Positions 4,275 to 35,565 of a stretch of 41,358 nucleotides of DNA are shown here, in pieces (the first letter of the stretch is position 1; the number at the start of each line of letters is the position of its first letter). The position numbers were made by a program, and so were the translations under genes. The DNA lies in the IMG/VR virus record IMGVR_UViG_3300025586_000002; one strand, 5' to 3'. Under the pieces are notes generated by a model. That model was not told the origin of the DNA and did no database searches. It saw nothing but the letters and a program-made list of their open reading frames with translations. The stretch comes from a virus.

Positions 4275-4806
4275 AGCAGGACCATTAGATGGAAAAAACT
4301 GGAAAGAAACACTTGATACTGGGATAAAAGAACTTAAAGACTTCAACTGGCAACTTGGTTTTGGAACATTGCTTGGAATGGTCAGAGATAAGACAGTAAT
4401 TCCGCACGATTTAGACTTAGACATAGATGTAATGATGGAAGATGAATACAAGCCGAACACAGATGCACTTCATCAAAGTTATTTAACAAAAGGATTTCGT
4501 CTTATTAAGATGCAAGAGTGGGGTGGTTTAATAATGTCGTTAGCCTATATGCACGAAAAGACGAATGTGATATTTGACATCTGTTTCTTTTATGGTATAT
4601 GGGGTGATGATTTTCTACACCTTGGAAGTGACGGAATTGTTATCAGACCGAGATGGACCTTAAAAACTATTAAACTACTTGGATACAACATACCTGAAAG
4701 ATATGATGATTATCTTACAGGAAGATATGATGATTGGAGAACTCCAGTTTCTGGGAAAAAAGATTGGTTTGATTACGCTAATAAATACTTTATAAAATAT
4801 GATTGA
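4240..4806 (+). CDS. LicD-family phosphotransferase (phosphocholine / polyol-phosphate transferase fold)
   Basis: GFGTLLGMVRDKTVIPHDLDLDIDVMM matches the LicD core GTLLGAVRhxGFIPWDDDIDV. Confidence 0.6.
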   Translation: MPRPKVILYPFKAGPLDGKNWKETLDTGIKELKDFNWQLGFGTLLGMVRDKTVIPHDLDLDIDVMMEDEYKPNTDALHQSYLTKGFRLIKMQEWGGLIMSLAYMHEKTNVIFDICFFYGIWGDDFLHLGSDGIVIRPRWTLKTIKLLGYNIPERYDDYLTGRYDDWRTPVSGKKDWFDYANKYFIKYD

Positions 4807-6067
4807 AAAACCAAAAGTAATTAACGATTTAAAACTCCAAGAAAAGATTGGTTGGACTCCACACAGTGGTCAGAAAAAGATTATAGACTGCCACGCAAGA
4901 GAGAAGATTATATGTGCAGGAAGAAGATTTGGGAAAAGTGATACTTGTGCTTATGAGATAGTAAAAGACGCACTTTTAGGAGATAGAAGAATATGGATAG
5001 CCGCACCTTCTTATGAACTTTCTAAAATAGTGTTTGACAGGGTAGTTATATTTCTTTCAAAAGTAATTAGCCCAAGTCATTTCAGAATACAGATGAAACC
5101 ATTTCCAACACTTACGCTGACTAACGGAAGTATTATTGAAGGAAAGTCGTGTGAGGCAAGGTCTGGTATGCTTGGTAGGTCTACTAACTTAGTAGTAATA
5201 GACGAAGCAGCACTTGTAGATGAGAACATCTGGCAACAATATATCAAGCCAACAACACACGAACAAAAAGGTAGAGTTGTTTATATAGGAACACCAAGAG
5301 GATTAAATTGGTTTTATGATAAGTTCCTGGAACTTCAAATAAAACACACAGCGTTTCAATTCAAGACTTCTGACAACCCATTGTTTGACTTAGTAGAATA
5401 TAATAAAGCAAGAGAGAGTCTGCCAGAAAAGGTTTTCGCACAAGAATACGAAGCAGAGTTTTTAACAGAAGCAGGATTAGTTTTTAGAGGAATAGACTTA
5501 ATTGTTGACGATACTTTGGCAGAACCAGTATTGGGAACAGCATATATATTAGGAGTGGACATAGCAAGGCATACAGACTACACAGCTTTGACTGTAATGG
5601 ACAGAACAACCAAGAAGGTAGTTTATCTCGACAGGTTCAAAGAACTTGATTATCCATACCAAAAACAACGCATTTTAACATTATCACAAAAATATAATAA
5701 CGCAAAAATAATAATAGATTCAACGGGCATGGGAGATAGCGTGGCTTCAGACCTAATGCGACAAGCGTTTGTAGAAGAATACCCACTATACAGCCATAAA
5801 GCAAAACAACAACTAATAGATAGACTTATAATCTTTATCGAACAAAGGGTTATAAGGATACCAAATAACGAAATACTTATAAATGAGTTAAAAAAATACG
5901 AGGTAAAAGTTTTAGAAGCGTCTGGAAAGTATAATTATTCAGCACCAAGAAGTGGGCACGATGATATGGTTATATCATTAGCACTAGCAACTTGGGGATT
6001 ACAGCCGAATAAACTATCAGACGTAGAAGAAACAGAAACCATAATAAAGCACAATGACTACGAATAA
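4799..6067 (+). CDS. terL: terminase large subunit
   Basis: Walker A-like AGRRFGKS and Walker B VVIDEAA. C-terminal nuclease acidic motifs GVDIARHTDYTAL and GHDDMVISLALA. The portal gene follows immediately. Confidence 0.9.
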   Translation: MIEKPKVINDLKLQEKIGWTPHSGQKKIIDCHAREKIICAGRRFGKSDTCAYEIVKDALLGDRRIWIAAPSYELSKIVFDRVVIFLSKVISPSHFRIQMKPFPTLTLTNGSIIEGKSCEARSGMLGRSTNLVVIDEAALVDENIWQQYIKPTTHEQKGRVVYIGTPRGLNWFYDKFLELQIKHTAFQFKTSDNPLFDLVEYNKARESLPEKVFAQEYEAEFLTEAGLVFRGIDLIVDDTLAEPVLGTAYILGVDIARHTDYTALTVMDRTTKKVVYLDRFKELDYPYQKQRILTLSQKYNNAKIIIDSTGMGDSVASDLMRQAFVEEYPLYSHKAKQQLIDRLIIFIEQRVIRIPNNEILINELKKYEVKVLEASGKYNYSAPRSGHDDMVISLALATWGLQPNKLSDVEETETIIKHNDYE

Positions 6068-7796
6068 TATATATAAAATCATAGCGGACGAAGTTCAAGA
6101 TTTCAAACAAAATCCAGCTCTTGTTATTGAAGGGTTTGTAAGAAATCAAAAAGAAGTTATTGAAAAAATCATTCGTCTTTATAATTCAAAGTTCAAAGAC
6201 GGAGAGTTTGACAGCGAAGGGTTTAGAAAATACTTCAAGAACATTGTAAAGAACCCTTGCAATTCTTCAACGAAAGCAATTAAGTTCTTACCAGCCGATA
6301 TAATGATTATTCCTGCTGCTGGTCAAGATGACCTTAAAGCGTGGATAATGGATAGAGATTTCAAATACTGGATGAAAGAAAAGCAGTTCGCAAAGATTCT
6401 TAACAGAATGTTTATGGACTTGCCGATTTTTGGTAGTGTAGTTTTGAAACTTGTCGGCGATAATTTACACTTCGTAGACTTGAGAAACTTAATCAATGAA
6501 CAAGCTGCTGATAAACTTAAAGATGCTTCTTATACAATTGAGCAACATTATTACTCGCTTGACGAGATGAGAAAGAAACCTTGGGATAACATTGAGGAAG
6601 CAGTTAAAATGTGGAGAGAAACTAAAAGACCTTATGTAAGAGTGTTAGAAAGATATGGTGAAGTTCCAGAATCAGAGTTCGGCGGAGATGAAAACAAATA
6701 TACTTACGCAAGACATATTGTTTATATGCCAGACACAAGGTATATGGACAGAATTGAAACCAACACAAAAGGTATTATTTTAGACGCTACTAAAATTAAA
6801 AGAGATGAGTTCCCTTACAGAGATTTCCATTTTGAAAAGATACCAGGTGCTTGGCTTGGAATAGGTAGAGTTGAACTTCTATCTGACCCACAATTAAGAA
6901 CTAACGAAATAACAAACTTACGAGTTAAATCTTCTTATGTTGCTGGATTAAACATCTGGCAAACAAGAGATGATAATGTTAAAAAGAATCTTATCAAAGA
7001 TGTTAAAACAGGACAAGTTATTACTGCGATGGACAGAATTGAGAAAGTTCCAACAGAAGAAAGAAACCTGTCAGCATTTATTGAAGAGGAAAGAAGTTGG
7101 GCTGGAAATGCAGACCAAGTAGCATTTAACTATGATGTTATTAGAGGAGAAAGAATGCCAGCAGGAACACCTCTTGGTTCAGCACAATTAGCAGCACAGA
7201 TGATTACTTCATACTTTGAACACATTAGAGAGAACATAGCATCAGATGTTAAAGAGTTAATCTTTAATGATATTATTCCACTGTTTAAAAAGACAGGAGA
7301 ACACTATATCAGACTTGTCGGAGAAGACCTTGATAAATGGCATCAACTTAAAACTAATGCCAGAGCAAATCTTGAACTGTTTAAGTTCCTTGTTCAAAAG
7401 AAAACAATACCTACCTCAATACAATTTGATGTGATGAAGAGTGTAATTAAAGACAAAGTGAAAGCAAGTAAAGATTCACCGCTAATTCCCGCAGAGTTTT
7501 ACAAAGACTTAAAGTATTCATTAGACATTGTTATTACAGGACAAGAAAGAGATTTGAGAGTAGAAGCTGCTAATATGGCAATGATACTTCAAACAATGGT
7601 AGCCGACCCAACAGTATTAACAGACCCAGTAAAGAGAAAGATATTTAGCAAACAACTTGAAGCAGTAGGAATTAGTATCAACGATATTGAACCAGAAGAA
7701 GCACAATCACAACAAACACCAATAGAGAAAAGAACACAACAAGGTGGTGGTATTTCAGCACCTAGTATGCCTCAAGTAATGCAACCTGGACTATGA
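6054..7796 (+). CDS. portal protein
   Basis: 580-aa ORF directly downstream of, and overlapping, terL and upstream of scaffold and capsid. Size and order are typical. Confidence 0.75.
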   Translation: MTTNNIYKIIADEVQDFKQNPALVIEGFVRNQKEVIEKIIRLYNSKFKDGEFDSEGFRKYFKNIVKNPCNSSTKAIKFLPADIMIIPAAGQDDLKAWIMDRDFKYWMKEKQFAKILNRMFMDLPIFGSVVLKLVGDNLHFVDLRNLINEQAADKLKDASYTIEQHYYSLDEMRKKPWDNIEEAVKMWRETKRPYVRVLERYGEVPESEFGGDENKYTYARHIVYMPDTRYMDRIETNTKGIILDATKIKRDEFPYRDFHFEKIPGAWLGIGRVELLSDPQLRTNEITNLRVKSSYVAGLNIWQTRDDNVKKNLIKDVKTGQVITAMDRIEKVPTEERNLSAFIEEERSWAGNADQVAFNYDVIRGERMPAGTPLGSAQLAAQMITSYFEHIRENIASDVKELIFNDIIPLFKKTGEHYIRLVGEDLDKWHQLKTNARANLELFKFLVQKKTIPTSIQFDVMKSVIKDKVKASKDSPLIPAEFYKDLKYSLDIVITGQERDLRVEAANMAMILQTMVADPTVLTDPVKRKIFSKQLEAVGISINDIEPEEAQSQQTPIEKRTQQGGGISAPSMPQVMQPGL

Positions 7797-8588: not shown

Positions 8589-9488
8589 ATGGCTACAACT
8601 TTAACAAAAGCAAATTTCGCTGGCTCAGGAGTATCTGCTATGGTTCCTTCCTTTTGGTCGGACATGATGCAGGTTCCTTTGAGAAAAGGTCTAGTTGCTG
8701 AGGCTGTTGCTAACAACCAATTTCGTGCAAAATTAACTAAAGGTGATACAATTCACTTTCCTTATATTGCCGAAACGGCTGCTTCAGCACACACAGCAGG
8801 TGGAACTTTCGCACCGCAAGATATATCTTCTACAGATGAAAATCTAGTAGTTGACACAGCATATCTTGTTGCTAACTACATCGAAGATTTTGAAGAACTA
8901 CAAGCTAACTACTCTTACATGCTTGACCTTGCAGACAATGCAGGATACAAATTAAGAGATGTTATTGATACAGCAGTTTTACTTGAAACTACTGCCGCTG
9001 CATCAGGACTGTTCTACGAATCAACAGGTGTACCAATTGCTCATGCTGCAACAAATCTGGCTTCTGGTGCTATTACTGCGACAACTGCAAACATTATCAA
9101 TGTGTTCGCAAACGCAAGATTAGCTCTTAGAAAACAAAATGTTGAGGAAGCAGGAGATTGGTGCGTGGTTACATCCCCAGAGGTTGCAATGTTGATTGAA
9201 CTTGTTGGAACTGAAAAAGGATTCAGCGTGGCTGATGCGACACTTCGCAACGGTTATGCAGGAGGATTCCTTGGTTTCCAAGTTTATATCTCTAACAACC
9301 TACCAGATGGTTACAACTATTTTGGAAGAAAGGGTATGATACACTCAGTTATCCAAGCCTCTCCTAATGTTCAAATCAAAGATGTTGCGAATAAACTCGG
9401 TAAAAACCTTGTTTCTTCAATACTATTTGGTGTGAAAGCATTTTTGAGAAGCAAATCAAGATACCTAGTAGTAAAAATTACTACATAG
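8589..9488 (+). CDS. major capsid protein
   Basis: 299-aa ORF after the scaffold gene, followed by a strong stem-loop. Order and size fit. No motif-level proof. Confidence 0.7.
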   Translation: MATTLTKANFAGSGVSAMVPSFWSDMMQVPLRKGLVAEAVANNQFRAKLTKGDTIHFPYIAETAASAHTAGGTFAPQDISSTDENLVVDTAYLVANYIEDFEELQANYSYMLDLADNAGYKLRDVIDTAVLLETTAAASGLFYESTGVPIAHAATNLASGAITATTANIINVFANARLALRKQNVEEAGDWCVVTSPEVAMLIELVGTEKGFSVADATLRNGYAGGFLGFQVYISNNLPDGYNYFGRKGMIHSVIQASPNVQIKDVANKLGKNLVSSILFGVKAFLRSKSRYLVVKITT

Positions 9489-9548: not shown

Positions 9549-10223
9549 ATGACATTAGCAGAACTTCAAGCCGATACACTTTTTTTGGCAAACACTGTGT
9601 CCGCACAATATGCAGACATTGCTATTAAAAGAAATCTTAATATACATTATGATATTGCTGTTTTAGACATATGGGATTCTGCGGCTGATTGGCAGTTTGA
9701 CGAAGGAATAGATGAACTACCGATAGGAACTGCAGCATTAGTAGCAGAACAAGATAACTATGCTATACCGACAGACGCAAGAGAGGTTGAAAGAGTAGAA
9801 GTAAAAGATTCAAACGGAAAGTATATCAAATTAGTTTCAATAGATTCTGCCAACATAAAAGATAGTCTTGAGCAGTTTAGAGGGAATAGTGGAACACCAG
9901 CTTATTACGATATAATAGGCAGGTCTTTAATTCTTTACCCAACACCAAGTTATAGTTCAGACGAAGGACTTTTAGTAGCAGTAAGTAAATCAGTTACACA
10001 ACTATCAGAAAGCACAGACGAGCCAAGAATTGAAAGAGAGTTTCACAGAATAATTAGTCTTGGTGCGGCATTAGACTGGTGTATAGCAAAAGGTAATCCA
10101 ACAAAGCGTGCCGAAATAGAGAGAGAACTTCTAAAACTTCAAATAAAATTAAGAAAGTTTTATGCAAACAGAAACAAAGACTACGACACCAGGATTAAAC
10201 CTGCAATGCAAAACTACGAATAA
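9549..10223 (+). CDS. putative head-to-tail adaptor/connector protein
   Basis: Position between the capsid and tail genes, and size comparable to podoviral adaptor proteins. Inference only. Confidence 0.35.
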   Translation: MTLAELQADTLFLANTVSAQYADIAIKRNLNIHYDIAVLDIWDSAADWQFDEGIDELPIGTAALVAEQDNYAIPTDAREVERVEVKDSNGKYIKLVSIDSANIKDSLEQFRGNSGTPAYYDIIGRSLILYPTPSYSSDEGLLVAVSKSVTQLSESTDEPRIEREFHRIISLGAALDWCIAKGNPTKRAEIERELLKLQIKLRKFYANRNKDYDTRIKPAMQNYE

Positions 10224-11307
10224 CATAAGTTGCACATATATTTTAAGCAACTTTACAGAGTTTCAGGTTGGTTGTTTTCAGGTAAGGATAAATAATCCCT
10301 TCATTCATTTGAATAGATTAGGACACAAGATGGAATATGTTGTTATGGGGCAACACGAATATACAGAGATAGATTCTGACATTGTAATGTATTCCAGAGC
10401 ATATACACAAGACCCATTTCGTTCTTTATGGAAACATAAATCAGACGGAAGAAAGATAGTTTATGAAATGGACGATGATATTTGGAACATACCAGAACTG
10501 AACCCAGCACACGATGGCTATGGCAAGAAGATGAAAAGTGATATTAGCGGATTGTGTAAAGAAGCAGACTTAGTTATTGTAAGCACAGAAGCATTGAAAG
10601 AAGTTGTTATAGAAGAAACAGGACAAAAGAATATAGTAGTTATTCCAAACGCTTTAGACTTAGACAAGTTTAAACTACGACCGAACAAAGAAGGATTAAG
10701 AATAGGCTGGACAGGAGGTGCAAACCATTATGAAGATTTAGACATTGTTTTACAAGCAATACACGACCTTCAAGAAGAATACGATTTTGAGTTCATTATA
10801 CAAGGATTAACCGCTGGACCGTGGGATGCTGACGCTTATTCAACAAACCTTATTTTAGAAAGAGGAGAACCGAAAGAAGCAATGCTTGCAATGAACACAC
10901 AGAAGTTAAACATTTATAAGAAGTTAAGAAAGTTAAAAAACTTCAAACATATTCCCTTTTACCCGCCAGAAATGTATGCTTCTGTATTAAAAGAAATAGA
11001 CTTAGACATTGGACTAATTCCAATAGTAGGACACAAGTTTGATAAATCAAAATCAATTATTAAGTATTTAGAATATACCGCAACAGGAACAGCAGTAATA
11101 GCATCAGAAGAAGACCCTTATAGAGATGTTATCTATACTGTTAAAAATAAATATAAGTATTGGTATAACGGAATTAAAGAGTTAATAGAAAATAAGGAGT
11201 TAAGAAATCAACTCGCTAAACAACAACACAAACAACTCTTTCCAAAATATGATATGAAAGAAGTAGTTAAACAATACGAAAAAGCATTATGTGGACTTAT
11301 AAAGTAA
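10162..11307 (+). CDS. GT-B fold (GT1/GT4-like) glycosyltransferase
   Basis: RIGWTGGANHYEDL and KSKSIIKYLEYTATGTAVIASE (E-x7-E-type block). The segment VRINNPFIHLNRLGHKMEYVV looks like the N-terminal YRxxxPxxxLxxxGHEV element. That favours the ATG at 10162 (62-nt overlap with the upstream gene) over the ATG at 10330. Confidence 0.6.
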   Translation: MQTETKTTTPGLNLQCKTTNNISCTYILSNFTEFQVGCFQVRINNPFIHLNRLGHKMEYVVMGQHEYTEIDSDIVMYSRAYTQDPFRSLWKHKSDGRKIVYEMDDDIWNIPELNPAHDGYGKKMKSDISGLCKEADLVIVSTEALKEVVIEETGQKNIVVIPNALDLDKFKLRPNKEGLRIGWTGGANHYEDLDIVLQAIHDLQEEYDFEFIIQGLTAGPWDADAYSTNLILERGEPKEAMLAMNTQKLNIYKKLRKLKNFKHIPFYPPEMYASVLKEIDLDIGLIPIVGHKFDKSKSIIKYLEYTATGTAVIASEEDPYRDVIYTVKNKYKYWYNGIKELIENKELRNQLAKQQHKQLFPKYDMKEVVKQYEKALCGLIK

Positions 11308-28707: not shown

Positions 28708-28935
28708 TTATTCTTTTATAAATGTTTTCCAAAACTCTGTTCTAAAAAGTAGTCCTTCTTCTGATAAGAAGTTATTGTCTGATAAATGTTCTAATATCTC
28801 CTCTAAGTCACAAGCAGATATGTCGGGAAACGCTCTAATTAGTTCTATGCTACGGGATTGTTTCTTCATAATACTTTCCTTATTTTTAGATGGACAATCT
28901 TCCATTTCACAATTTTCACAAATATAGTTTGTCAT
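28708..28935 (-). CDS. hypothetical protein
   Basis: AAAACTATG start preceded by the 25-nt repeated leader. Confidence 0.6.
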   Translation of the reverse strand: MTNYICENCEMEDCPSKNKESIMKKQSRSIELIRAFPDISACDLEEILEHLSDNNFLSEEGLLFRTEFWKTFIKE

Positions 28936-28957
28936 AGTTTTAACCTTATTTTAATAA
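28933..28957 (-). repeat. 25-nt repeated -10/leader element (copy 1)
   Basis: catagttttaaccttattttaataa is identical at 28933-28957 and 29128-29152. On the minus strand it reads TTATTAAAATAAGGTTAAAACTATG. Confidence 0.9.
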
Positions 28958-28976
28958 CGCTCTTATGTTCTGTCAA
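28948..28976 (-). promoter_or_regulatory. sigma70-like early promoter
   Basis: Minus strand: TTGACA (28976-28971, within the last codons EIDRT* of the upstream gene), 17-nt spacer, TAAAAT (28953-28948). Confidence 0.6.
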
Positions 28977-29130
28977 TTTCATCTTTGTGTTTCATGTACA
29001 TCGTTAGTAATTCTTCCATATAGTGTTTTCCAAAATCACATCCGTGGTTTTTTAATGTGTAGTTCATTAGTTTTCTCATTTGAGTCCAATACCATTCTTT
29101 TATTTTGTCTTTTAGTGTTTCTTTTCCCAT
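28963..29130 (-). CDS. hypothetical protein (55 aa, not in the ORF track)
   Basis: Hand translation: MGKETLKDKIKEWYWTQMRKLMNYTLKNHGCDFGKHYMEELLTMYMKHKDEIDRT. It has the same 25-nt leader as the next gene. Confidence 0.5.
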   Translation of the reverse strand: MGKETLKDKIKEWYWTQMRKLMNYTLKNHGCDFGKHYMEELLTMYMKHKDEIDRT

Positions 29131-30058: not shown

Positions 30059-30511
30059 TTATTTATTTAGTTTTTGTTTGAGTTTATGTATTTCATTATC
30101 TCTCCGTTGATACCCTTGAAAGAAAAGACCTCTAATTTTTAATGCTTCTTTAAATGTAATTTTTCTTTCTAATCCCTCCATTATCTCTTGTTTTTGTTGA
30201 GAGAGAACTCTACTACAAACTTCTAACATCAACTTCCCATTTTTACTTTCAGGGTCAAACTCTTTGGTATCTTCTCTTGTTTCATATCCGAAAGAAGGTG
30301 CTAATTCTTCATAAGTATTATGAAATAATTTTGCCCATTTTATTTTCTCGTTTGTTTTCATATTATTTATTAATTTATTATCTGGACAATCATTGTGTAA
30401 TCCTTTATTCACTCTACATTTTGGACAGTATTCTAAAAATGCTTGCATAATTTTATTATAATACTTTACATCTTTTTTACAATGCTTACAAAGTATGTGC
30501 TTTTGTTTCAT
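30059..30511 (-). CDS. hypothetical protein with an N-terminal CxxC...CxxC zinc ribbon
   Basis: CKHC...CPKC. An internal AATAATATG at Met52 (MKTNEK) could be a second start. Confidence 0.55.
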   Translation of the reverse strand: MKQKHILCKHCKKDVKYYNKIMQAFLEYCPKCRVNKGLHNDCPDNKLINNMKTNEKIKWAKLFHNTYEELAPSFGYETREDTKEFDPESKNGKLMLEVCSRVLSQQKQEIMEGLERKITFKEALKIRGLFFQGYQRRDNEIHKLKQKLNK

Positions 30512-30532
30512 TTACTACCTATTAACAGGTAG

Positions 30533-30602
30533 TATAAGAAAAGGAGAGAGCAACCCCTTTTAATAGTCCGATAAACTCGGTGGGTTTTGGATTGCTCTCT
30601 TT
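30533..30602 (-). terminator. long-stem terminator-like hairpin ending the Shine-Dalgarno-bearing island
   Basis: Minus strand: AGAGAGCAA (30600-30592) pairs with TTGCTCTCT (30553-30545) around an inner CCGA/TCGG hairpin, followed by CCTTTTCTT. Confidence 0.5.
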
Positions 30603-30662
30603 AAACCTTTGAAAGAACTTCATTCAGGTTCCTAGTTCCTAGTGTACTAGGCTATTAGGAAG

Positions 30663-31742
30663 CTATCGATAAATCTTAACCTGTTCTCTTACTGGTTCGG
30701 ATAACTTAATTGGTCTTGTCCAAACCACGCCGTGCTTTTCATTGACCCCAAACAAGAACTGTTCAGCAATTCCCATTCGTCTTAACTTTCCGATAGAGAA
30801 TAAATCTCCCCCAACAAAAGAGCCGTTGGCTATAATGTTGTTAAAGAAACCAAGACGATGATGATGTCCCATAAGCATATAATCTGCTTTTTCAGAGAAC
30901 ATTCCGAGAATTGCTTGGATGTTGTTCTTTTGGCGGTCAGCACCATAATAAGGGTATCCTGCCCAACCTCTAACGGTATCTCCGTGGTCTAGCCAGAAAT
31001 TATGATTGTTAATTGCTACAATCATATGCTGGGCTTCGGTATATTCTATTAGAATATCTTTTAGCCCAAGCAGTCTTTGCTTCATAAAGTGATATGTTAG
31101 TAAGTCAAAGTTCTCTTGTGGAGGGGCGTCTTTTGGATTAGGTGTTAGTCTGGCATGGTTTCCATAAACCCCGTAGAAACGGATTTTAGGGAAGTATCCT
31201 GTTAATATAATAATGAAGTCTGCTAAGATTTCCACTGCTTCAATGACTTGCTTACACACACCGAACTCAATGTTAGACTGCTGGTTTCCACGAAGGATTG
31301 AACCATCTACCATGTCCCCAAGACAAGTAATAACTAACTCATGGGGTTTGTTAGGGTGGTATTCAAGAAACCTTATTATCTTTTCAGCCAAAAGGGATAA
31401 CCTTTTTCTTGCGATACAAGGACTGTATTCAGAAAGTCCTCCTACTTCAACCGCTTTCACGAGTTGTCCGTAGTGCCAATCTGACAGTTCAAGAACCCAA
31501 GACTCTGGTTTCAAATCCCCTTTCCTGATTTGAGGAGGGTCAAGTCTTTTGAGTTTTGGAAGAGTATCTACCACCTGTTGTGCGATTTCTTTGACATTTA
31601 ATATAATGTCTTTCTTTTTCTGTGCAACAGCGTGATTGTGGTTCCAGTGGTATCTAAAACCACTTCTGTCAGAGAAGTCTTTGTTGCACTCTGGACACAT
31701 TACCCTTCCATTAACTTCTTTTGTATTTGGATACATTCTCAT
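30663..31742 (-). CDS. calcineurin-like metallophosphoesterase with an N-terminal classical C2H2 zinc finger
   Basis: Metallophosphoesterase motifs LSDWHYG (DxH), GDMVDG, GNHAR, LDHGD, MGHHHRL. N-terminal CPECNKDFSDRSGFRYHWNHNH fits C-x2-C-x3-F-x5-hydrophobic-x2-H-x4-H. AAAGGAGGT lies 7 nt before the ATG. Confidence 0.7.
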   Translation of the reverse strand: MRMYPNTKEVNGRVMCPECNKDFSDRSGFRYHWNHNHAVAQKKKDIILNVKEIAQQVVDTLPKLKRLDPPQIRKGDLKPESWVLELSDWHYGQLVKAVEVGGLSEYSPCIARKRLSLLAEKIIRFLEYHPNKPHELVITCLGDMVDGSILRGNQQSNIEFGVCKQVIEAVEILADFIIILTGYFPKIRFYGVYGNHARLTPNPKDAPPQENFDLLTYHFMKQRLLGLKDILIEYTEAQHMIVAINNHNFWLDHGDTVRGWAGYPYYGADRQKNNIQAILGMFSEKADYMLMGHHHRLGFFNNIIANGSFVGGDLFSIGKLRRMGIAEQFLFGVNEKHGVVWTRPIKLSEPVREQVKIYR

Positions 31743-31923
31743 TAGAATTACCTCCTTTATAAATGCCTCGTATTCCCGTTCGCCGTTTAAAGTCTATGTA
31801 AGCCTTTTCGGCTTTCGCAATAGACTGCCCGAGTTCCCAGAACTCTCTGCCGTGAACACCTACTTTCGCATACTCTTCCATTTCTTCCTTTAACTGGAAA
31901 AATAAACTTTCAAATCTATCCAC
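31711..31923 (-). CDS. hypothetical protein, paralog B of a tandem pair
   Basis: GTG start with AAAGGAGGAG upstream. About half of the residues are identical to the 31916-32104 product (MDxFExLFFxLxEE...AEKAYxDFKxxTGIxGIxKGG). Confidence 0.6.
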   Translation of the reverse strand: MDRFESLFFQLKEEMEEYAKVGVHGREFWELGQSIAKAEKAYIDFKRRTGIRGIYKGGNSNENVSKYKRS

Positions 31924-32104
31924 GGGGAACTCCTCCTTTGTGAATACCGAGAATACCTGTTTTCTTTTTGAAATCCTTATAAGCTTTCTCGGCTACACGA
32001 ACATAGTCTATTACCAACCACAGTTCTTGGCAGTTAATTCCTGCCTCACGATAGCCTTTAATCTCTTCCCTTAAATGGAAGAACAACCTTTCAAACTTAT
32101 CCAT
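31916..32104 (-). CDS. hypothetical protein, paralog A of a tandem pair
   Basis: AAGGAGGG lies 7 nt before the ATG. See paralog B. Confidence 0.6.
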   Translation of the reverse strand: MDKFERLFFHLREEIKGYREAGINCQELWLVIDYVRVAEKAYKDFKKKTGILGIHKGGVPRG

Positions 32105-32405
32105 CTGGAATCCCTCCTTCGAGGAATTGGTCTATGGAAACATTCTTATCATCGACATAGTAATCTGCTGGTATCTTGATGTTGGAGATAGCGTGGTATT
32201 TGACATTATGCTTCCGTAACCATTTGATTGTTGCTGGAATAAGCTCATCTGCTCTGGCGGTGTATACGATTATCCATACATTGACCAGAGAGTTTACCTT
32301 ATCAACAACATCTTGCCTTGGTTCGGCGTTCAAGCATTCTTCGTAAGTCCAACAAGTTTCTTTGGTAAGGGTATTATCACAGTCTATCATAATTACCTTT
32401 GCCAT
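32097..32405 (-). CDS. minimal HAD-superfamily phosphatase-like protein
   Basis: Motif I IDCDNT (DxDxT), VYTAR (motif II Thr), and a Lys plus YVDDKN (motifs III/IV). GAGGAGG lies 7 nt before the ATG. Confidence 0.5.
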   Translation of the reverse strand: MAKVIMIDCDNTLTKETCWTYEECLNAEPRQDVVDKVNSLVNVWIIVYTARADELIPATIKWLRKHNVKYHAISNIKIPADYYVDDKNVSIDQFLEGGIPDG

Positions 32406-32407
32406 TA

Positions 32408-32563
32408 TTACACCTCCTCAATATGAATTTTTTTTATCTTAATAAGAAACCTATCTTTGTCTTTTGTTGGAATAGCACGATAAACTATTCCGAACTTGTA
32501 GAACTTTTTGCCGATTTCCCAAGTCCACATTTCAAAGATTTCTCCGTAGATAAGATATTGCAT
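32408..32563 (-). CDS. hypothetical protein (51 aa, not in the ORF track)
   Basis: Hand translation: MQYLIYGEIFEMWTWEIGKKFYKFGIVYRAIPTKDKDRFLIKIKKIHIEEV. AAGGAG lies 8 nt before the ATG. Confidence 0.45.
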   Translation of the reverse strand: MQYLIYGEIFEMWTWEIGKKFYKFGIVYRAIPTKDKDRFLIKIKKIHIEEV

Positions 32564-32567
32564 TTCC

Positions 32568-32816
32568 TCATCTCCTTAAATAATGTTCTCCTTTCTTGAT
32601 TTTAGTTTTTAAATCTTCAATCTCTTCTGCGGTAATCTTTTGCTTGGTCTTCATTCGCCAGTTAATATCCATTATGAAATTCTCTATCTCTATATCATAA
32701 AGGTTATTAAACAAGGCGTGCCAAAGTTGGTGGAACTTCTTGGGGAGTAAAACTTTCTTGTCGTAGTTTCCGCGACTTTGCGGGACGGCATGGTGTTCAC
32801 TGTATTCGTGCTTCAC
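32568..32816 (-). CDS. small HNH-type endonuclease-like protein
   Basis: EHHAVPQSRGNYDKKVLLPKKFHQLWHALF resembles the HHIxPxSxGG...N...H..xHxLF pattern of small phage HNH proteins. GTG start with AAAGGAGG upstream. Confidence 0.45.
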   Translation of the reverse strand: MKHEYSEHHAVPQSRGNYDKKVLLPKKFHQLWHALFNNLYDIEIENFIMDINWRMKTKQKITAEEIEDLKTKIKKGEHYLRR

Positions 32817-32854
32817 TTTTCTCGCCTCCTTTCAATTGTTAATGTGCTATTATA

Positions 32855-32883
32855 ATGATAACAAATTACTTCCTAAATGTCAA
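32855..32883 (-). promoter_or_regulatory. sigma70-like promoter of the island
   Basis: Minus strand: TTGACA (32883-32878), 17-nt spacer, TATCAT (32860-32855), immediately followed by TATAAT (32854-32849). Confidence 0.6.
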
Positions 32884-32885
32884 GC

Positions 32886-33392: not shown

Positions 33393-34040
33393 TTATTGCT
33401 TTATTATTTTTATTGTTTGTATTTTAACTTTTTTAAACTCTCCGTCATAATATAAGATATAAGTATCTTTTATCTTCACTCCACGCCTTTCAGATAACTC
33501 CTTATACATTCCTACCTGCAACTTGTGTTCGTTTTCCTTTGAAAAAGGTATATGGTCTAACGGTTTTAGAAAGTATCCTCTTTCTTTTGAAGTGTCATTT
33601 GATGTCTTTATATCTAATATATTTACTTGTTTGCCGACCTTTTGAAATAAATCTACTGTTCCTGCGATAAGAAGTTCTGGGCAATAAACAATAACTTCTG
33701 AATACAGTGTGCCTAATTTTAACTTCTTAAACTTCTCTAAAACTTCTTTTAAGTGAGGTGCGTTTGGCTCTTGTTTGTATCTGACCCATAGTTTTATAGT
33801 GTTATGGACAGCGTTCCCGTAGTCAGAAGCAATAGAACTTTTTGTTTCCCACTCGTCTATAATCTCGTCTTTATCTCTCTTGTCTCGTTTAGCCATTGCT
33901 GTCGCTATTCTTTCTTTCGGGAACTCTGGCTTGAACTGTAAAAGATATTCTGATACAGAGGTATAACCCTCGCCTCTAAAAGAATATGTATGTGTTGCTT
34001 TGTCGAAGTTCATAGGTTGTCCTTGTTTTTTAATAATCAA
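33393..34040 (-). CDS. PD-(D/E)XK (RecB/Cas4/YqaJ-like) exonuclease
   Basis: GTVDLFQKVGKQVNILDIKTS (D...D/E-x-K) and a downstream LQVGMYKEL (QxxxY). Confidence 0.65.
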   Translation of the reverse strand: MIIKKQGQPMNFDKATHTYSFRGEGYTSVSEYLLQFKPEFPKERIATAMAKRDKRDKDEIIDEWETKSSIASDYGNAVHNTIKLWVRYKQEPNAPHLKEVLEKFKKLKLGTLYSEVIVYCPELLIAGTVDLFQKVGKQVNILDIKTSNDTSKERGYFLKPLDHIPFSKENEHKLQVGMYKELSERRGVKIKDTYILYYDGEFKKVKIQTIKIIKQ

Positions 34041-35200: not shown

Positions 35201-35228
35201 AGTATATCAAATCTAAATTATTTGTCAA
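35201..35228 (-). promoter_or_regulatory. sigma70-like early promoter
   Basis: Minus strand: TTGACA (35228-35223), 16-nt spacer, TATACT (35206-35201). The -35 plus stop is encoded as cttgacaaataa (Leu-Asp-Lys-stop). Confidence 0.7.
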
Positions 35229-35537: not shown

Positions 35538-35565
35538 AGTATATCAAATATGAATTATTTGTCAA
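35538..35565 (-). promoter_or_regulatory. sigma70-like early promoter
   Basis: Minus strand: TTGACA (35565-35560), 16-nt spacer, TATACT (35543-35538). It is a close sequence relative of the promoter at 35201-35228 (both read TTGACAAATAATT, then ATTTGATATACTTA). The -35 is embedded in Leu-Asp-Lys-stop. Confidence 0.7.

Follow-up and report, generated by a model that had tools for sequence, protein, structure and literature searches.

The stretch of DNA analysed here, the 41,358-base IMG/VR virus record IMGVR_UViG_3300025586_000002 (hereafter the window), is a nearly complete tailed-phage genome. Between positions 30,512 and 32,885 it holds a compact island of six consecutive genes which differ from the rest of the window by carrying strong Shine-Dalgarno (SD) sequences. 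The promoter and terminator assignments are consensus matches at sequence level only. In the direction of transcription the island comprises the following features:

32855..32883, minus strand: sigma-70-type promoter-like site (consensus match), TTGACA-N17-TATCAT with a TG before the -10 hexamer
32568..32816, minus strand: HNH-like protein of 82 amino acids (aa), GTG start, SD AAGGAGG at 32825-32831
32408..32563, minus strand: open reading frame (ORF) of 51 aa, SD AAGGAG at 32572-32577
32097..32405, minus strand: HAD-IIIA-type minimal phosphatase (mini-HAD) of 102 aa, SD GAGGAGG at 32413-32419
31916..32104, minus strand: paralog A, small protein of 62 aa, SD AAGGAGG at 32113-32119
31711..31923, minus strand: paralog B, small protein of 70 aa, GTG start, SD AAGGAGG at 31932-31938
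30663..31742, minus strand: metallophosphoesterase (MPE) of 359 aa with an N-terminal C2H2 zinc finger, a long helix and a calcineurin-like domain, SD AAGGAGG at 31751-31757
30536..30600, minus strand: terminator-like hairpin (sequence match) with a 12-bp stem and a 32-nt loop containing an inner stem, followed by CCUUUUCUU
30512..30535, minus strand: perfect palindrome ACTACCT-GTTAAT-AGGTAGT at the edge of the island spacer

The SD strength of each gene was scored as the duplex energy of the 16S tail ACCUCCUUA with positions -20 to -1 before the start, a calculation based on a 9-nt anti-SD that may not be the host's own 16S tail. All six island genes (30663-32816) possess an AAGGAGG-type SD 6-9 nt upstream of the start. 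The pairing energies are -11.6 kcal/mol for 32568-32816, -9.2 for 32408-32563, -13.5 for 32097-32405, -12.2 for 31916-32104, -11.6 for 31711-31923 and -12.9 for 30663-31742. The remaining 59 gene starts of the window range from +2.1 to -4.7 kcal/mol with none below this value, and the backbone starts lie in A-rich contexts such as AATAAT-ATG. Moreover, six of the eight AGGAGG hexamers on the minus strand of the window are located inside 31443-32830, and a start-agnostic scan, in which ORFs could begin at any in-frame start close to their 5' end, found only two marginal internal sites outside the island. The contrast is far beyond chance. An earlier note, made from the sequence alone, had described strong ribosome-binding sites on the six genes of the island and a largely SD-less remainder, and the pairing energies confirm this (6/6 vs 0/59). 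The two GTG starts that it reported are also present, at 32816 and 31923. The backbone start codon is ATG, and the few TTG or GTG entries stem from longest-ORF calls, as in at least one ORF (33393-34040) that is shorter in public gene calls. The SDs of the island are often embedded in the final codons of the gene before them; therefore, the island genes are probably translationally coupled.

Relatives of the MPE were fetched as about 100 loci, which are named L001 and onwards. Genes in these loci are greedy ORF calls, and many of the contigs are too short for classifying their backbone as SD-less or SD-rich. The island is located at one and the same place in over 20 independent assemblies (ENA, JGI and Logan), in the invariable order 104-aa gene, 63-aa gene, island, 150-aa gene. 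The exact MPE protein together with both flanking proteins is encoded on many independently assembled contigs, in which both junctions were recovered. An assembly chimera, or a chance clustering of purine-rich motifs, has in its favour only the a priori possibility that exists for a metagenomic contig. It is at odds with the independent recovery of both junctions, with the fixed spacing of the motifs before six consecutive starts and with the recurrence of the pattern in unrelated contigs, and almost certainly does not account for the island. The earlier note had proposed a search for relatives lacking the island in order to define its insertion ends. Among the contigs encoding exactly both flanking proteins no such relative was found, as all of them carry the island, and therefore insertion ends cannot be defined from them.

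Public gene calls of this island (L001, L108-L122) often omit the 82-aa gene and shorten the HAD phosphatase to 97 aa and paralog B to 56 aa, presumably due to training of the gene callers on SD-less starts. As a practical consequence, callers trained on an SD-less backbone miss or truncate island genes. Besides, we found a variant of the window phage (L003/L028, Ga0222697_1006089) with an identical MPE and 150-aa gene but other genes further downstream, including a DUF5662 protein in place of the 136-aa gene. Therefore, the region downstream of the island is mosaic.

The promoter-like site at the 5' edge of the island starts 2 nt past the stop codon of the upstream gene. Sites of the form TTGACA-N16-18-TAnnnT were found 14 times in the window compared with 2.5 expected from shuffles. 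In the early region, nine of these sites are on the coding strand (40722, 39183, 37670, 36514, 36001, 35565, 35228, 32883 and 28976), several of them with an extended -10 TG. Two of them form a nearly identical pair on the minus strand (35201-35228 and 35538-35565, TTGACAAATAATT...GATATACT) 337 nt apart. Since the island promoter is one of 14 like sites in the window, it is to be regarded, by its motif, as a backbone-type signal and not as a foreign one. The -35 hexamer, the leader and the first SD are common to the window and L009. At the 3' edge, the 12-bp stem of the putative terminator spans 30545-30600, with a loop that is atypically large for a terminator. The hairpin lies inside a 152-nt spacer with a folding z of -4.8, and an Rfam search of the window and of this structured 3' spacer found no element. 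Both signals thus exist where the earlier note had placed them, whereas its view of the promoter as a signal of the island's own does not agree with the abundance of the same type in the backbone. The palindrome 30512-30535 stops 3 nt short of the ATG with which the backbone gene 30059-30511 begins and could act as an RNA hairpin masking the start of this gene or as an operator. A 33-aa ORF within the spacer (30522-30623, minus strand) has neither an SD nor evidence of conservation and is probably not a gene.

The composition of the island was described in the earlier note as less AT-rich by eye, which was borne out by a compositional check. The GC content of the island is 0.393, and its GC content at third codon positions (GC3) is also 0.393. 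For 80 backbone gene blocks of similar size the corresponding values are 0.344 +/- 0.020 and 0.288 +/- 0.038. With a maximum of 0.356 in the backbone, the island GC3 is above that of all 80 blocks. The codon-usage divergence of the island is raised, though it is not the most extreme among the blocks. No convincing target-site duplications and no convincing terminal or flanking direct repeats were detected at the island.

In a large protein collection we found 95 homologues of the MPE, down to 26% identity, and tblastn with the six island proteins showed that the core genes occur together in other phage loci. The HNH-like protein is found at 40-52% identity beside HAD and MPE in L007, L009-11, L012/13, L034 and L037, either upstream or downstream of them, and a HAD phosphatase with 70-75% identity is adjacent to the MPE in L007, L009-11, L017/L030-32 and L126. 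As judged from these neighbourhoods, the conserved core is a three-gene module composed of the HNH-like protein, the mini-HAD and the zinc-finger MPE. Single-protein scans of IMG/VR with the MPE and with the flanking exonuclease returned no relatives; IMG/VR relatives were reached only with an alignment-based query.

At least six diverged phage lineages with SD-less backbones contain the core together with its SDs, and the flanks of the core are unalignable among them. The identity of the MPE to that of the window is 81% in L007, 73% in L009, 61% in L017, 52% in L012 and 50% in L018. In these loci, SDs are found on the MPE and the cassette genes next to it, with energies of about -8 to -13.5 kcal/mol, and almost nowhere else; the backbone SD counts are 0/51 in the window, 1/15 in L017, 0/18 in L012 and 0/14 in L018. 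In a start-anchored alignment, ten lineages with 46-81% identity show AAGGAGG 6-9 nt ahead of the MPE, while the sequence further upstream of the SD is unalignable across the ten. For the HNH-like gene, each of the six lineages examined shows an SD, combined with GTG, TTG or ATG starts. Conservation of the SD as a by-product of overlapping coding sequence was considered and rejected as a general explanation, as the MPE SD is intergenic in L009 and L012. In L034, L035 and L038, the MPE SD is replaced by an A-rich leader in SD-less backbones. As the SD can thus be lost, its retention elsewhere is informative. The signals and their conservation are direct observations, from which we infer that the SDs of the cassette are functional. 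A separate MPE clade resides in SD-rich phage backbones (e.g. L047 and L055), where most members have TTG starts (L046, L047, L049, L057, L059 and L061). MPE relatives at about 26% identity belong mainly to phages of Bacillus, Enterococcus, Staphylococcus and Listeria. In cultured Bacteroides/Parabacteroides phages, the MPE homologue is SD-less, as are its neighbours.

The neighbourhood of the module varies among phages. It follows tail and lysis genes in L007, an 836-aa protein in L009 and a 1511-aa protein in L017, and in L012 it lies about 6 kb before the terminase. Compared with the window, L007 has backbone proteins with 28-48% identity and an MPE with 81%, whereas L033/L034 has backbone proteins with 54-70% identity and an MPE with 61% that is SD-less and placed elsewhere. 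Because the positions differ and the similarities of cassette and backbone disagree, the module moves laterally among phages, in line with the mobility that the earlier note had assumed. L033/L034 is the nearest backbone relative found; its MPE adjoins a DNA methyltransferase-like gene, and its HNH-like gene, about 3.5 kb from the MPE, has retained the SD.

Phage morons are autonomous promoter-gene-terminator insertions, a concept of Hendrix and Juhala. The island is moron-like in its compactness, in the promoter-like site and the terminator-like hairpin at its edges, in a composition unlike that of its neighbours and in the differing positions of the module among related phages. However, it comprises six genes instead of one or two, its promoter is of the backbone class, no close relative without the island was found, and its distinguishing mark, the mode of translation initiation, is outside the moron definition. 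The earlier note had interpreted the island as a recently acquired moron. In this case it would be a late import from a phage of an SD-using host, and the SDs, the GTG starts and the GC content would be functionless relics that have not yet ameliorated. This would fit with the GC3, which is the highest of the comparable blocks, with the wider MPE family in mostly Firmicutes phages and the existence of the clade in SD-rich backbones, and with the loss of the MPE SD in three lineages, as predicted by neutral decay. Nevertheless, we consider a recent import unlikely. Every close relative, on more than 20 contigs, has the island at an identical position. The nearest cassettes (MPE identities of 81%, 76%, 73% and 61%) reside in SD-less backbones or in contigs too short to be classified, and none of them in an SD-rich backbone. 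Moreover, every cassette gene keeps its SD at exact spacing despite randomised flanks and down to MPE identities of 49-61%, the lineage-specific paralogs retain theirs even after divergence to 52% identity, and the promoter is of the backbone type. Of the earlier interpretation, a self-expressed cassette of foreign ancestry is supported by the GC3, the SDs, the GTG starts and the occurrence of the MPE family mostly in SD-using Firmicutes phages, while the recency is not. The best reading is that the SDs mark ancestry and a distinct translation mode.

The small proteins of the island differ in their conservation. In the family alignment of the HNH-like protein, H8, H9, P12, S14, R15, H29 and H33 are invariant, and with them the HH...H...H motif, but the canonical Asn and Cys ligands are absent. 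Only one of seven family members matched PF01844, weakly (E 0.0045). A profile search against the PDB gave nothing convincing, a homologue search returned the query alone, and the AlphaFold2 model from the single sequence (pLDDT 61) was too poor for a structure search. The assignment as HNH protein is therefore weak: of the gene identities given in the earlier note, the others stand as stated, and this one is based on the motif and the one Pfam match. The same note had suggested that an HNH nuclease mobilised the island. As the 82-aa protein is conserved together with HAD and MPE and can lie on either side of the two, it appears to behave as a functional partner and not as a mobilising nuclease. 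In addition, homing HNH elements differ from the island, for which we observed neither presence/absence polymorphism between collinear genomes, there being no island-less variant, nor flanking direct repeats. The 51-aa ORF recurs in L009-L011 only, with 53% identity. The SD of paralog A sits in the C-terminal codons of the HAD gene, and paralog B overlaps the start of the MPE by 32 nt. The two paralogs are 52% identical and both possess perfect SDs. Their family of proteins of about 60 aa is tiny, with four cluster representatives among 1.8 billion proteins. L126 has one copy, located between HAD and MPE, and the duplication is specific to the window lineage.

The translation of the HAD phosphatase contains the motifs MIDCDNTL (D8, D10 and T12 of DxDxT), VYTAR and YVDDKN. 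It matched phrog_1238 (2e-18), TIGR01689 (3e-6), PDB entry 1xpj (0.004) and PF25109 (PNKP phosphatase, 0.005), with the matches to PNKP-phosphatase-like, capsule-phosphatase and HAD-IIIA models all below the curated cut-offs, so that no subfamily was assigned. The MPE matched PF00149 (4e-5, 24.5 bits at a cut-off of 21.5) and phrog_284 (3e-42), a large phage family often annotated as 'DNA polymerase II small subunit'. It shows the DxH, GDxxDR, GNH(D/E), H and GHxH motifs and an alpha/beta sandwich fold, and in the family alignment the residues D88, H90, D143, N195, H196, H253, H293 and H295 of the metal-binding motifs are invariant. In the zinc finger, C16 and C19 are nearly invariant; its profile matched C2H2 fingers in the PDB at 2e-6, and the match to Pfam zf-C2H2 (0.0036) is below the cut-off.

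The best Foldseek match of the AlphaFold2 model of the MPE (pLDDT 79.7) was the proofreading exonuclease PolD DP1 (about 1e-8), followed by Vps29, Mre11 and the B subunits of Pol delta and epsilon. Among phage proteins the model matched entries annotated as 'DNA polymerase II small subunit' at 1e-22, and also others annotated as SbcD-like or calcineurin-like phosphoesterase. The modelled MPE thus belongs to the DP1/Mre11-like fold class. Bxb1 gp47, a phage member of this class, was described as needed for DNA replication and has weak exonuclease activity (PMC11795197). By fold class and this precedent, the MPE is a putative 3'-5' DNA exonuclease. It shares with phrog_284 and Bxb1 gp47 the fold class, the intact metal-binding motifs, the linkage to genes of replication and recombination and the lack of a Rad50-like partner (PMC11795197). 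In contrast, the island MPE has an additional N-terminal C2H2 zinc finger and a long helix, is tightly linked to the mini-HAD and the HNH-like protein and is only about 26% identical to the phrog_284 members of cultured phages. Nevertheless, the statement of the earlier note that a phosphatase together with a phosphodiesterase is not a described phage module has to be revised with respect to the MPE, which falls into this large family with its PolD-DP1 and Mre11 matches and its Bxb1 precedent.

Calcineurin-like MPEs include 2',3'-cyclic phosphodiesterases, and T4 Pnkp and Clostridium thermocellum Pnkp/Hen1 are RNA end-healing systems with a HAD-type or calcineurin-type phosphoesterase. HAD and MPE could heal the ends of cleaved tRNA or other RNA, or they could destroy nucleotide immune signals, in which case the SDs would be incidental. 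Consistent with such a role, the HAD-IIIA group includes the PNKP 3'-phosphatase (the weak PF25109 match), and the cassette is mobile and accessory. However, the structures nearest to the MPE are DNA exonucleases (PolD DP1 and Mre11), and the closest viral models carry the annotation Pol II small subunit or SbcD-like. A distant homologue in Bacteroides phage EMB1 lies between the genes for an annotated single-stranded-DNA-binding (SSB)-type protein and DNA polymerase I. Besides, the island lacks a kinase, ligase or methyltransferase as found in Pnkp/Hen1. PADLOC returned nothing relevant and NCBIfam nothing informative beyond the HAD matches, and the roles in counter-defence or second-messenger destruction listed in the earlier note found no support here. 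A function of this kind is quite improbable. Because the MPE model resembles the PolD-DP1 and Mre11 exonucleases, its fold class favours DNA-end processing over the destruction of second messengers.

Whether SDs can be used depends on the ribosome of the host. The A-rich SD-less leaders suggested a Bacteroidota host, which was rejected since the promoters are of the type TTGACA-N17-TAnnnT and the Bacteroidota -7 motif TAnnTTTG is not enriched in the window (57 sites vs 57.2 expected). Conversely, no TTGACA-type sites were found in the 13-kb stretches of cultured Bacteroides/Parabacteroides phages that were examined. The co-occurrence of TTGACA promoters and SD-less starts therefore indicates a host that combines sigma-70-type promoters with SD-independent initiation. 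The phage encodes a dTDP-glucose-4,6-dehydratase-like gene and a glycosyltransferase (1268-2287 and 10162-11307 of the window). The nearest named homologues of the dehydratase-like protein are from Paceibacterota and Woesearchaeota (63% identity), and cellular contigs with dehydratase homologues (L123 and L125) have SDs on 0/22 and 0/24 genes. The sigma-70 promoters with SD-less genes together with these homologues weakly suggest a host in Patescibacteria. Labels of metagenome-assembled genome bins for the MPE contigs were inconsistent (Saccharofermentanales, Patescibacteria, Saccharibacteria and Myxococcales) and were not trusted. In Parcubacteria, an anti-SD motif was detectable in only 48%, and bS21 is often missing (PMC9297842).

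A further reading is a translational switch in a host whose ribosomes usually ignore SDs, in which strong SDs would limit the cassette to ribosomes with a free anti-SD, for example bS21-free ones, with distinct or stress-linked timing. In Flavobacterium johnsoniae only ribosomes lacking bS21 read strong SDs (PMC9976891), and in Parcubacteria bS21 is often absent and the anti-SD is variable (PMC9297842). Every cassette gene and no other gene has an SD, and this is retained across lineages. The situation resembles the rpsU (bS21) autoregulation of Bacteroidia, which likewise involves an isolated conserved strong-SD gene set in an SD-less genome (PMC9976891, PMC7797042). However, the island concerns phage genes and not a ribosomal-protein gene, and its pairing is shorter, with -9 to -13.5 kcal/mol on a 9-nt anti-SD and thus well short of the rpsU-type mode of about -20 kcal/mol, a value obtained with a different method (PMC9976891). 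Measured against a bound of -13 kcal/mol for an extended SD, the island values of -9.2 to -13.5 fall on both sides. The host is probably not a member of the Bacteroidia given the lack of -7 motif enrichment and the enriched sigma-70 TTGACA promoters, and cultured Bacteroides/Parabacteroides phages have neither such promoters nor an SD on the MPE homologue. Moreover, no bS21 or ribosome-modifying gene was found among the approximately 30 of about 65 ORFs scanned against Pfam or PHROGs, and the loss of the SD in three lineages shows that it is dispensable. We therefore regard such a switch as improbable. The same low weight is given to the related idea that in an SD-less host lineage, possibly Patescibacteria, the cassette keeps SD initiation for a particular ribosome state or infection stage.

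Our favoured reading, to which we assign about an even chance, is that the island is a portable, self-expressed DNA-end-processing module derived from SD-using phages, whose SDs are kept by purifying selection. The module would have originated in phages of SD-using bacteria, as suggested by the AAAGGAGG sites, the GTG/TTG starts and the higher GC3. It would then have entered a group of related SD-less phages and been exchanged laterally among them, and the window lineage would have gained the 51-aa ORF and the duplicated protein of about 60 aa. Transcription would start from an ordinary phage early promoter and translation from pairing of SD and anti-SD. The SDs would be under purifying selection wherever the host ribosome can use them and would give way to the host-typical A-rich leader where this constraint lapsed, because the ribosome cannot or need not use them. 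The role of the module, as read from fold and gene neighbourhood, would most likely be the action of three enzymes on DNA ends in recombination-dependent replication or repair, with the MPE as 3'-5' exonuclease, the HAD protein as 3'-phosphatase or nucleotide phosphatase and the HNH-like protein in nicking or cutting.

Several points weigh against this reading. The reading presupposes a free anti-SD on the ribosome of the host. A Bacteroidia-like host would be SD-blind (PMC9976891, PMC7797042), and simple SD-driven initiation would fail there as well as in a Parcubacteria-like host without anti-SD (PMC9297842). Repeated and fairly recent lateral transfer could also yield SD retention in the absence of local selection. 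Where the SD shares its bases with the C-terminal codons of the gene before it (...KGG), as in some lineages, it is additionally constrained at the protein level. The MPE tree is a neighbour-joining, midpoint-rooted tree of 37 sequences, and many contigs are too short to give a backbone class. Finally, the proposed biochemistry follows from fold class; substrates of HAD-IIIA enzymes are unpredictable, and the HNH assignment is weak.

The surrounding genome is divided into two arms. The plus strand carries late genes up to about 27.6 kb, among them a collagen-like tail fibre and the following:

4799-6067, plus strand: large terminase, late gene
6054-7796, plus strand: match to a head-tail adaptor/connector, late gene
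8589-9488, plus strand: major head protein, late gene

Small early genes fill the minus strand between 41.3 and 27.65 kb. Among them, those for an Erf annealing protein, a PD-(D/E)XK exonuclease and NinG/Rap lie directly upstream of the island and form an adjoining recombination module. Downstream, two adjacent small genes on the minus strand (28708-28935 and 28963-29130) share an identical 22-nt leader TTATTAAAATAAGGTTAAAACT, which suggests a local duplication of the leader together with its gene at 28708-29130. A nucleotide search of GenBank phages in near and distant modes gave no match to the window, and a tRNA search of the window found none.

SD-less initiation is well studied only in Bacteroidia. 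For the uncultured SD-poor lineages, the cassette offers a natural experiment on whether the ribosome can use an SD, since it has kept its SDs in six or more diverged SD-less phage genomes and lost the MPE SD in three others. Its SD retention implies that in part of these hosts SD pairing is still functional, and we predict that retention correlates with the anti-SD status of the host. Moreover, the cassette supplies pairs of translation initiation regions with and without SD for reporter tests. The enzyme set is a plausible and uncharacterised accessory to recombination-dependent phage replication. If the SDs do serve a particular ribosome state, the cassette would be a phage-borne example of control by specialised ribosomes, and the presence or absence of its SDs would be a genomic reporter of a usable anti-SD in an uncultured host.

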